Source of the DNA: Escherichia coli
Lineage (GTDB): Bacteria > Pseudomonadota > Gammaproteobacteria > Enterobacterales > Enterobacteriaceae
Assembly: GCF_003334785.1 (NCBI RefSeq)
Contig: NZ_QOWV01000004.1
Direction: 5' to 3' (one strand)
DNA: 64,000 bases
The position numbers and the translations under genes were made by a program. Every line of letters starts with the position of its first letter. Positions within the stretch are counted from its first letter, which is position 1. A model generated the notes under the pieces. It did no database searches, was not told the DNA's origin, and saw only the letters and a list, made by a program, of their open reading frames with translations. Shown here piece by piece: positions 32,281 to 64,000 of the stretch.

Positions 32281-32309
32281 TTAGTTACTGCAGTAGAGGA
32301 TTTTTTACG

Positions 32310-32535
32310 GCTGCCGGATGCGGCGTGAACGCCCTATCCAGCCTACGGTTATGTTCCGGTTTGTAGGCCTGATAAGACGCACAGCGTCGCATCAGGCAAC
32401 GGCTGTCGGATGCGGCGTAAACGCCTTATCCGACCTACGGTTATGTTCCGTTTGTAGGCCTGATAAGACGCACAGCGTCGCATCAGGCAACGGCTGCCGG
32501 ATGCGGCGTGAACGCCCTATCCGACCTACGGTTAT
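32310..32535. repeat. BIME: cluster of about five REP palindromic units
   Basis: Alternating GCCGGATGCGGCGTGAACGCCTTATCCGGCCTAC-type and TGTAGGCCTGATAAGACGC...GCATCAGGCA-type units read directly. Confidence 0.85.
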
Positions 32536-32603
32536 GTTCTGGCTCGTTGGCCTTTGGCAACGATTATCCTATGAGATTGGGGCAATTACGCGCCCTCGTC
32601 AAA

Positions 32604-41359: not shown

Positions 41360-41537
41360 TTACAAATCTCTGCCTGAGTCCAGAAAGGCTTAATGCATCA
41401 GCAGCATTCCTCGCCTGTTTGCAACCGCGTAAGGTCATTCATCTGCATATGTGCTGCAACAATCTGGCGAGCAGACAAGCACACTCCCATGAGACGCAGC
41501 GCGCGTTATTCTACGTGAAAACGGATTAAACGGCAGG

Positions 41538-59187: not shown

Positions 59188-60213
59188 ATGAAAAAGATGA
59201 TGATAGCCACACTGGCTGCCGCCAGCGTGCTGCTTGCCGTTGCAAATCAGGCGCATGCTGGCGCGACGCTTGATGCCGTTCAGAAAAAAGGTTTTGTGCA
59301 ATGCGGGATCAGTGATGGATTACCTGGGTTCTCTTATGCCGATGCTGACGGTAAGTTTTCAGGTATTGATGTTGATATTTGTCGTGGTGTTGCCGCTGCT
59401 GTATTTGGTGACGACACGAAAGTGAAATATACCCCGCTCACTGCAAAAGAACGCTTCACCGCTTTACAGTCAGGGGAGGTGGATTTGCTCTCCCGTAATA
59501 CGACCTGGACTTCATCTCGCGATGCCGGGATGGGAATGGCATTTACCGGCGTCACTTATTACGACGGCATTGGCTTCCTGACGCACGATAAAGCGGGGCT
59601 AAAAAGCGCGAAAGAACTGGATGGCGCTACCGTCTGTATTCAGGCGGGTACTGATACCGAACTCAACGTCGCCGACTACTTCAAGGCAAACAATATGAAG
59701 TACACACCGGTGACTTTCGATCGCTCTGACGAATCAGCGAAGGCACTGGAATCTGGTCGCTGCGATACGCTGGCCTCGGATCAATCACAACTGTATGCCC
59801 TGCGCATCAAATTAAGCAACCCAGCTGAATGGATTGTCTTACCGGAAGTTATCTCAAAAGAACCGCTTGGTCCGGTAGTTCGTCGTGGCGATGATGAATG
59901 GTTCTCGATTGTACGCTGGACGCTTTTCGCCATGCTGAATGCTGAAGAGATGGGCATCAATTCCCAGAACGTCGATGAAAAAGCGGCTAATCCAGCAACG
60001 CCTGATATGGCACATCTGCTGGGTAAAGAAGGCGATTACGGCAAGGATCTGAAGCTGGATAATAAATGGGCCTATAACATCATCAAACAGGTGGGTAACT
60101 ACTCGGAAATTTTTGAGCGTAACGTAGGTTCAGAAAGCCCGCTGAAAATTAAACGTGGGCAAAATAATCTCTGGAATAACGGCGGTATTCAGTACGCACC
60201 GCCCGTGCGTTAA
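59188..60213 (+). CDS. yhdW: Periplasmic substrate-binding protein of polar amino acid ABC transporter, 341 aa, reading frame intact
   Basis: Signal peptide MKKMMIATLAAASVLLAVANQAHA; SBP family 3-like; uninterrupted ORF. Confidence 0.85.
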   Translation: MKKMMIATLAAASVLLAVANQAHAGATLDAVQKKGFVQCGISDGLPGFSYADADGKFSGIDVDICRGVAAAVFGDDTKVKYTPLTAKERFTALQSGEVDLLSRNTTWTSSRDAGMGMAFTGVTYYDGIGFLTHDKAGLKSAKELDGATVCIQAGTDTELNVADYFKANNMKYTPVTFDRSDESAKALESGRCDTLASDQSQLYALRIKLSNPAEWIVLPEVISKEPLGPVVRRGDDEWFSIVRWTLFAMLNAEEMGINSQNVDEKAANPATPDMAHLLGKEGDYGKDLKLDNKWAYNIIKQVGNYSEIFERNVGSESPLKIKRGQNNLWNNGGIQYAPPVR

Positions 60214-62582: not shown

Positions 62583-63341
62583 ATGAGCCAAATTTTACTG
62601 CAACCTGCTAACGCGATGATTACGCTGGAAAACGTCAATAAATGGTATGGACAATTCCATGTTTTGAAAAATATAAATTTAACCGTGCAACCGGGAGAAC
62701 GGATCGTTCTGTGTGGCCCTTCAGGTTCCGGTAAATCGACAACCATTCGTTGTATTAATCATCTGGAAGAACATCAACAGGGACGGATCGTGGTAGATGG
62801 CATCGAACTTAATGAAGATATCCGCAATATTGAGCGCGTCAGGCAGGAAGTGGGAATGGTCTTTCAGCATTTCAATCTCTTCCCTCATCTGACCGTTTTA
62901 CAGAACTGTACCCTGGCACCGATTTGGGTACGCAAGATGCCTAAGAAAGAGGCTGAAGATCTGGCGGTGCATTACCTAGAGCGGGTGAGAATTGCCGAAC
63001 ATGCGCATAAGTTTCCCGGACAGATTTCAGGTGGTCAGCAGCAACGCGTTGCCATTGCGCGTTCGCTGTGTATGAAGCCGAAAATTATGTTGTTTGATGA
63101 GCCAACGTCGGCGCTCGATCCTGAGATGGTGAAAGAGGTGCTGGATACGATGATTGGGCTGGCGCAGTCGGGTATGACAATGTTGTGTGTAACACATGAG
63201 ATGGGGTTTGCACGAACCGTCGCTGACCGGGTAATTTTTATGGATCGTGGGGAAATAGTGGAGCAAGCTGCACCTGATGAATTTTTTGCGCATCCTAAAT
63301 CAGAGCGTACGAGGGCATTTTTATCGCAGGTAATCCATTAA
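62583..63341 (+). CDS. yhdZ: ABC transporter ATP-binding protein, 252 aa
   Basis: Walker [10 protein letters not shown], signature LSGGQQQR, Walker [11 protein letters not shown]. Confidence 0.9.
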
Positions 63342-63360
63342 TTGAATGTTAGTTCGAAAA

Positions 63361-63394
63361 GCAAAAAGGCCATCCTTTCGGATGGCCTTTCGCT
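63361..63394. terminator. rrn T2-like hairpin (AAAGGCCATCC-tttcg-GGATGGCCTTT), convergent terminator for rrnD and yhdZ
   Basis: Perfect 11-bp-arm hairpin with T-rich flank on both strands. Confidence 0.6.
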
Positions 63395-63523
63395 TGATTT
63401 GATGTCTGGCAGTTTATGGCGGGCGTCCTGCCCGCCACCCTCCGGGCCGTTGCTTCGCAACGTTCAAATCCGCTCCCGGCGGATTTGTCCTACTCAGGAG
63501 AGCGTTCACCGACAAACAACAGA

Positions 63524-63569
63524 TAAAACGAAAGGCCCAGTCTTTCGACTGAGCCTTTCGTTTTATTTG
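63524..63569 (-). terminator. rrn T1-like terminator immediately downstream of rrfF
   Basis: Minus-strand AAACGAAAGGCTCAGTCGAAAGACTGGGCCTTTCGTTTTAT, matching the well-known rrnB T1 sequence from memory. Confidence 0.7.
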
Positions 63570-63689
63570 ATGCCTGGCAGTTCCCTACTCTCGCATGGGG
63601 AGACCCCACACTACCATCGGCGCTACGGCGTTTCACTTCTGAGTTCGGCATGGGGTCAGGTGGGACCACCGCGCTACTGCCGCCAGACA
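63570..63689 (-). rRNA. rrfF: 5S ribosomal RNA (distal copy of rrnD), 120 nt
   Basis: Minus-strand match to E. coli 5S; carries U at position 3 (UGUCUGG) and GGCAGUAGCGC variant relative to rrfD. Confidence 0.9.
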
Positions 63690-63726
63690 AATTCTTTTCT
63701 AATCTGCCGAACTTTAACCTAAAAAG

Positions 63727-63802
63727 TGGTGCTGATACCCAGAGTCGAACTGGGGACCTCACCCTTACCAAGGGTGCGCTCTACCAACTGAGCCATATCA
63801 GC
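63727..63802 (-). tRNA. thrV: tRNA-Thr (anticodon GGU), 76 nt with encoded CCA
   Basis: Minus-strand GCTGATATGGCTCAGTTGGTAGAGCGCACCCTTGGTAAGGGTGAGGTCCCCAGTTCGACTCTGGGTATCAGCACCA. Confidence 0.9.
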
Positions 63803-63814
63803 ACGCTAAATTTG

Positions 63815-63934
63815 ATGCCTGGCAGTTCCCTACTCTCGCATGGGGAGACCCCACACTACCATCGGCGCTACGGCGTTTCACTTCTGAGTTCGGCATGGGG
63901 TCAGGTGGGACCACCGCGCTACGGCCGCCAGGCA
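63815..63934 (-). rRNA. rrfD: 5S ribosomal RNA (proximal copy of rrnD), 120 nt
   Basis: Minus-strand exact-looking match to canonical E. coli 5S (UGCCUGGCGGCCGUAGCGCGGUGG...). Confidence 0.9.
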
Positions 63935-64000
63935 AATTCTGTTTTATCAGACCGCTTCTGCGTTCTGATTTAATCTGTATCAGGCTGAAAATCTTCTCTC
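63935..64000 (-). other. 23S-5S spacer of rrnD (window ends before the 23S gene)
   Basis: Minus-strand GAGAGAAGATTTTCAGCCTGATACAGATTAAATCAGAACGCAGAAGCGGTCTGATAAAACAGAATT is the conserved spacer preceding 5S. Confidence 0.6.

Follow-up and report, generated by a model that had tools for sequence, protein, structure and literature searches.

Why do the two 5S rRNA genes that flank a tRNA-Thr gene at the end of a single rRNA operon differ from each other, and why does one of them have a U-G wobble in helix I? The question was raised by an earlier note on a window of Escherichia coli DNA, the window being the whole stretch of 64,000 nucleotides that was analysed, to which all positions below refer. 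The note had described two non-identical 5S genes at the end of rrnD, regarded one of them as canonical, and placed the differences of the other at least at position 3, where a U would face G117, and at position 12.

The last 700 nucleotides of the window are, with near certainty, the promoter-distal end of an rrnD operon of E. coli, and the identities of its genes are equally secure. Read along the minus strand, the 23S-5S spacer is followed by the proximal 5S rRNA gene rrfD (63815-63934), the tRNA-Thr(GGU) gene thrV with its encoded CCA (63727-63802), the distal 5S rRNA gene rrfF (63570-63689), and the terminators T1 and T2, after which comes the convergent yhdZ, whose 3′ end is on the plus strand with a TAA stop codon at 63339-63341. 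The identities and the order given in the earlier note for rrfD, the tRNA-Thr gene, and rrfF agree with Rfam, ARAGORN, and the MG1655 annotation; the tRNA gene is detected by ARAGORN, scores 70.7 bits with RF00005, and is named thrV in MG1655. The range from 63570 to 63934 turned out to be the exact outer ends of the two 5S genes; their strand (minus) had been left unstated. The RF00001 matches span 63817-63932 with 92.8 bits and 63572-63687 with 89.1 bits (both on the minus strand; the gathering score is 38). Both cover model positions 1-120 and thus are full-length members of the 5S rRNA family. The two genes are a homologous pair, chance similarity being excluded, and both are intact. The window stops 66 nucleotides inside the 23S-5S spacer and contains no 23S sequence, as the note had recognized. 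These 66 nucleotides (63935-64000, minus strand) are the 3′ two-thirds of the spacer and are identical to MG1655, in which the gap between rrlD and rrfD is 92 nucleotides and rrlD starts 27 nucleotides past the point matching the window end.

Is this arrangement common? The gene order matches that of MG1655 (rrfF/thrV/rrfD/rrlD) and the annotation of the strain STK78-E, with yhdZ alongside. The region 63300-64000 is covered to at least 80% in 4086 of 5426 complete E. coli genomes, and, among the matches listed, the genomes covering it are annotated with two rrf genes, a tRNA-Thr gene, and yhdZ. The primary description of the rrnD distal end is reportedly that of Duester and Holmes in 1980. A tRNA-Thr gene between two 5S genes is a known feature of rrnD, and 5S heterogeneity is known in E. 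coli, as the note had said (PMC4696680, PMC11883441 for both). The micro-heterogeneity of rRNA copies is partly homogenised by recombination (PMC4696680, PMC11883441, PMC6002687). The 5S-tRNA-Thr-5S arrangement, annotated in every E. coli genome, and the micro-heterogeneity as such are therefore already known. Both 5S copies have RNase E-type flanks, with GAAUU before the 5′ end (UG...) and CAAAU after the 3′ end (...CAU). The precursor p5S is an RNase E product with a 5′ AUU extension and a 3′ CAA extension (PMC9848016). Both copies are presumably expressed, processed from one transcript, and built into 50S subunits.

Downstream of rrfF, the terminator scan detected the T1 hairpin at 63523-63566 (minus strand; a 20-bp stem, a GAAA loop, and a U tract), which is in the rrnB-type form, and the T2 hairpin at 63364-63391 (minus strand; a 12-bp stem). 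T2 was detected on both strands, and its palindrome doubles as a plus-strand terminator downstream of yhdZ. T2 is preceded by a remnant of a 5S 3′ end, AACUGCCAGACAUCAAAU (63397-63414, minus strand), which belongs to the direct-repeat family D2 and was recognized by alignment with rrnB and rrnA. This remnant retains the A equivalent to 5S position 117. The rrnD terminator exists in two forms. The window, K-12, and O157 have the long form, with T1, the 18-nt 5S-end remnant, and T2, while in the short form of MS10858, S7, O111:H11, and AVS0750, the 168-bp T1 segment is lacking and T2 directly follows the distal 5S gene. Since the T1 segment is bounded by 30-nt direct repeats (63385-63414 and 63553-63582), the two forms are likely to have arisen by repeat-mediated deletion or duplication.

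When the two 5S copies of the window are aligned with their flanks, they differ at exactly two of 120 nucleotides, and the cautious "at least" of the earlier note can be dropped. Position 3 is C in rrfD and T in rrfF (63687), and position 12 is C in rrfD (63923) and A in rrfF (63678). The rrf genes of MG1655 served as the reference set, standing in for those of the window's own genome. The rrfC, rrfD, rrfG, and rrfH genes of MG1655 have the canonical C12, and the rrfD gene of the window (C3/C12/G117) is identical to all four, which agrees with its description as canonical. The rrfB and rrfE genes have A12, rrfA has A12 together with C92T, and rrfF has U3, A12, and A117. Thus, the alignment suggested in the note confirmed the heterogeneity but changed its reading at two points. 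U3 is indeed specific to the distal copy, whereas A12 is not, being shared by rrfA, rrfB, rrfE, and rrfF, or half of the MG1655 rrf genes; and A117, which like U3 is confined to rrfF, is the usual state of the distal copy, while the window has G at 117 (63573). C3 and G117 form a pair of helix I, according to the Rfam consensus structure and the ViennaRNA pair table, so that U3 and G117 form a wobble. The wobble is therefore present in the window as claimed, but it is atypical of rrfF, whose usual form has a compensated U3-A117 pair. A literature search on rrfF found nothing on its sequence variation. As a separate observation, A12 is also present in the proximal 5S gene (at the equivalent of 63923) of Origami2-DE3 and of LR882052; position 12 flips between alleles inside rrnD among close relatives of the window. 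Compared with the canonical sequence, the distal 5S gene of the O157:H7 strain 3-5-1 has an additional change, T87A, in the loop region of helix IV.

How common are these alleles in E. coli? An exact 66-nt query carrying both U3 and A12 is present in 5148 of 5464 matching records. Therefore, both are species-wide alleles, and assembly error is excluded for both. The note had named assembly errors in a collapsed repeat as the finding that would refute it; this possibility is thus closed for U3 and A12 and remains live only for G117 and the five sites linked to it (see below). The two differences between rrfD and rrfF belong to a standing allelic heterogeneity of the eight rrf genes that extends across the species. 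For the state of position 117, I used 187-nt queries anchored in the thrV-rrfF spacer against the 5426 complete E. coli genomes and counted records at 99% identity or more. The MG1655 form (U3, A12, A117, and the rrnD-type T1) was found in 3525 records at this threshold, with exact identity in 25 of 60 rows sampled at even intervals, while the window form reached it in no more than 26 of 5499 matching records. All of the five diverse strains that were read (MS10858, S7, O111:H11 88.0502, AVS0750, and O157:H7 3-5-1) have U3, A12, and A117. A 64-nt query of the 3′ half gave at least 2926 exact matches for A117, a number to be read with the paralogous G117 copies lying just one mismatch lower and with interference from terminator polymorphism. 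A 327-nt query, whose identities are blurred by the joining of the neighbouring 5S copy, was used as a list of carriers only. The U3-G117 wobble is rare in E. coli, at roughly 0.5% of the records or less.

Is the U3-A117 pair also found in other Enterobacterales? At least 120 loci, with one genome per species, were collected by a pattern consisting of the tRNA-Thr 3′ end, a gap of 20-50 nucleotides, and TGYCTGGCGGC, which admits only C or T at 5S position 3. The counts are of sequences and not of independent events, with many species coming from few genera and many loci lying on draft contigs. Among the matches listed, 117 loci could be parsed for the distal copy, and positions 3 and 117 were U/A in 54, C/G in 61, U/G in 2, and C/A in none. 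Thus, 54 of the 56 U3 cases have A117, and the remaining two among these matches, with the U3-G117 state of the window, are from Citrobacter sp. FP75 and Enterobacter mori. The distal U3-A117 pair occurs in Escherichia, Salmonella, Citrobacter, Enterobacter, Pluralibacter, and Leclercia, and also in Dickeya, Hafnia, and Leminorella. Where a proximal 5S gene lies on the same contig, it is C/G in all 49 cases, and the combination of a proximal C-G and a distal U-A is found in 21 of these 49 loci with both copies, again among the matches listed. Positions 12-14 are the same in the proximal and distal genes at 34 of the 49 listed loci. In 46 distinct sequences, the 3-117 pair is CG in 26, UA in 17, and UG in 3, with no unpaired case; of the 18 cells in which both sides have changed, 17 belong to this pair. 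These cross-species data are clean covariation support for the 3-117 pair of helix I. The distal U3-A117 pair is thus old and widespread, and the window probably represents a rare, half-reverted intermediate.

Helix I (1-10/110-119) is kept in the ViennaRNA folds of all alleles. Relative to the rrfB-type allele, the predicted cost is 2.1 kcal/mol for U3-A117, 2.7 for U3-G117, and 7.2 for the C3-A117 mismatch. The fall in the Rfam score from rrfD to rrfF, from 92.8 to 89.1 bits, is small. There is no reason to think that the hybrid 5S rRNA (U3, A12, and G117) is non-functional, and it is presumably expressed and assembled.

Where did G117 come from? It was revealed that G117 is one of six substitutions relative to MG1655 rrnD that lie within 78 bp, at 63496, 63503, 63530, 63545, 63559, and 63573. 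All six sites agree with MG1655 rrnB, and five also agree with rrnA. On both sides, the closest informative markers, 63687 (5S position 3) and 63405 (in the region of the 5S-end remnant), are of the rrnD type. The rrnB-like patch therefore extends over at least 63496-63573 (78 bp) and at most 63406-63686 (281 bp) and spans 5S position 117 as well as the whole T1 hairpin. Within T1, the sites 63559 and 63530 face each other in the stem as a compensated pair, G-C in both the window and rrnB and A-U in MG1655 rrnD, and 63545 lies in the GNRA loop. Since this pair is kept and the third site lies in the loop, T1 was swapped as an intact, self-consistent unit. The predicted folding energies are -32.6 kcal/mol for the window form and -30.8 kcal/mol for the MG1655 rrnD form.

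Such a cluster is foreign to the surroundings of the patch. Outside it, the window differs from MG1655 over about 50 kb by five scattered SNPs, one single-base indel in yhdW, and the length of a REP array, and there is no difference in 63574-64000 or in the 4.2 kb that precede 63496. With six SNPs in 78 bp against a background of about one SNP per 10 kb, the cluster is not due to chance. The closest complete RefSeq E. coli record over 39001-64000 is LR882052, from a pig in Norway, with four differences; no record is identical. It has the identical patch haplotype and also the four non-K-12 variants of the window at 41505, 44834, 57473, and 59255. STK78-E, from Switzerland, shares the final 701 bp of the window without a mismatch, while it has 152 differing sites further upstream and diverges strongly 6 to 20 kb away. 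Thus, the patch is present in independent natural isolates from different countries and in at least two backgrounds. Two of the other differences deserve mention in their own right. The yhdW gene is an intact ORF of 341 amino acids in the window (59188-60213, plus strand), while MG1655 lacks the A at 59255 and has yhdW annotated as a pseudogene; the window is therefore from a close relative of K-12 and not from K-12 itself. The REP array (32307-32539), with Rfam naRNA4 matches (RF02564, REP325) at 32366-32435 and 32457-32526 on the minus strand, is about 92 nt, or one unit, longer than that of MG1655.

The patch may be explained by short-tract gene conversion from an rrnB-type operon, a reading whose probability I put at about 0.65. 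It has a dense cluster of substitutions, identity to a paralogous donor, and recipient-type markers on both sides, and rrn operons are known to convert one another over short tracts (PMC6002687, PMC4696680). Both the mechanism and its direction are deduced from this pattern, the donor having been judged on the rrnB operon of MG1655. A non-reciprocal recombination would have replaced between 78 and 281 bp of rrnD, including position 117 and T1. The tract would have stopped short of 5S position 3, so that U3 stayed, G117 arrived, and the U3-G117 wobble was left behind. With the tract boundary lying between positions 3 and 117, the two partners of this pair would have been separated. Conversion would be possible on the downstream side owing to the terminator homology of rrnD with rrnA and rrnB, which exceeds 200 bp there; upstream of 5S position 3, the homology to other rrf genes stops after about eight nucleotides. 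The window state is likely to be the derived one and the MG1655-type state the ancestral one, because the MG1655 states are found in O157:H7 and in most genomes, and A117 is found in other genera. One finding speaks against a single tract: the patch of BL21(RP) is an alternating mosaic, which one tract does not explain.

The same mosaic would fit another explanation, in which the patch is an artefact of assembly or polishing. Short reads from the 5S-T1 regions of rrnA and rrnB would have been mis-mapped, overwriting a true U3-A117 pair and a true rrnD-type T1. Window-like patches occur in assemblies of laboratory strains with nearby accession numbers, namely TOP10 and Origami2-DE3 of K-12, and BL21(DE3) (CP081489), Rosetta2-DE3, and BL21(RP) of the B lineage. 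Their occurrence across unrelated K-12 and B lineages is the outcome expected of repeat mis-mapping in polishing. For T7Express_LysY, also of the B lineage, the total count of mismatches to the window type is three, the same as for the MG1655 type. Two assemblies of J53 even disagree with each other: J53-KPC_Vir-P15 is of the MG1655 type, while J53-p1-pV-hybrid-1 equals the majority vote of MG1655 rrnA, rrnB, and rrnD at all six sites. The window itself behaves differently. At 63545, it has the rrnB state, which is the minority state among MG1655 rrnA, rrnB, and rrnD; its tract is unbroken and is bounded on both sides by clear rrnD-type markers; and the identical haplotype recurs in the natural isolates. 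Simple majority-vote polishing, which predicts the MG1655 state at 63545 and fits J53-p1-pV-hybrid-1, was rejected for the window. On balance, an artefact is unlikely as the source of the window's patch, although it has to be taken seriously. As for the laboratory strains themselves, rrnB- or rrnA-like patches in the rrnD 5S-T1 stretch are found in CP080620, CP081489, CP083274, CP084529, CP084683, and CP068706, the strains being TOP10, BL21(DE3), Rosetta2-DE3, Origami2-DE3, BL21(RP), and one J53; they are absent from MG1655 and another J53. These patches may be systematic polishing errors in rrn repeats.

It is also conceivable that the patch was imported from another strain by homologous recombination, i.e., by horizontal transfer and not from a paralogous operon of the same genome. 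The mixed relationship of STK78-E to the window, with exact identity at the end and strong divergence farther away, indicates that the region is shuffled between strains. However, an import would only move the question, as the rrnB-like haplotype must arise by paralogous exchange somewhere. The flanks of the window's patch match MG1655 on both sides, and the tract boundaries coincide with the ends of paralogous homology, which favours conversion within one genome and makes an import very improbable here. The reverse polarity, with the patch ancestral and the MG1655-type rrnD terminator and A117 derived, is hardly credible: the window haplotype equals that of rrnB and might, in principle, be what a duplicated terminator looked like before any conversion, but the MG1655-type states at all six sites are common to O157:H7, A117 is the state of all the diverse strains read and, among the matches listed, of 54 species belonging to other genera, the window type is confined to the few records counted above, and to get from the window state to the MG1655 state, six point changes would have to fall within 78 bp despite the low background.

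Why, then, does the U3-A117 pair persist in the distal copy? The most economical explanation is that positions 3 and 117 sit at the edges of the homology block, beyond the reach of conversion. Alternatively, the pair might be kept by selection for a distinct 5S rRNA or precursor at the operon end, for example in the processing of the tRNA-Thr-5S-terminator segment. I consider this quite unlikely; if it were true, conversion would have left the window, as a by-product, with a mildly deleterious allele, U3-G117, and the rarity of this allele, about 0.5%, would be accounted for.

Under the conversion reading, the locus would be a small example of a conversion tract splitting a compensated RNA base pair. 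For read mapping and variant calling, it matters that E. coli has several 5S alleles (C12 or A12, and U3-A117 in rrfF only), that the rrfF of this strain is a rare hybrid, and that public assemblies of one laboratory strain conflict at the patch sites. The 5S-T1 stretch shared by rrnA, rrnB, and rrnD is, by virtue of this sharing, prone both to real conversion and to polishing errors. What is added here to the known heterogeneity is that the wobble is atypical and is traced to an rrnB-like patch, that the 5S-T1 stretch is unreliable in some public assemblies, and that positions 3 and 117 covary.

Among known systems, the rrnD end of MG1655 (rrfD, b3274; thrV, b3273; rrfF, b3272) resembles that of the window in gene order, in the strand relation to yhdZ, and in spacer lengths. 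Its rrfD and thrV are identical to those of the window, and its rrfF has the common U3 and A12; it differs by the six substitutions of 63496-63573, with A117 in place of G117. The 5S gene and T1/T2 of rrnB (rrfB, b3971) resemble the window in A12, in all six patch sites, and in the architecture of T1, the 5S-end remnant, and T2. In contrast, rrfB has C3 and directly follows the 23S gene, and the remnant and T2 region of rrnB diverges at 63405 and downstream. Among the matches listed, Salmonella, Citrobacter, Enterobacter, and other Enterobacterales have the same tRNA-Thr-5S layout, often with U3 in the distal copy and with C3-G117 in the proximal one. Their distal U3 is mostly accompanied by A117, whereas that of the window is accompanied by G117.
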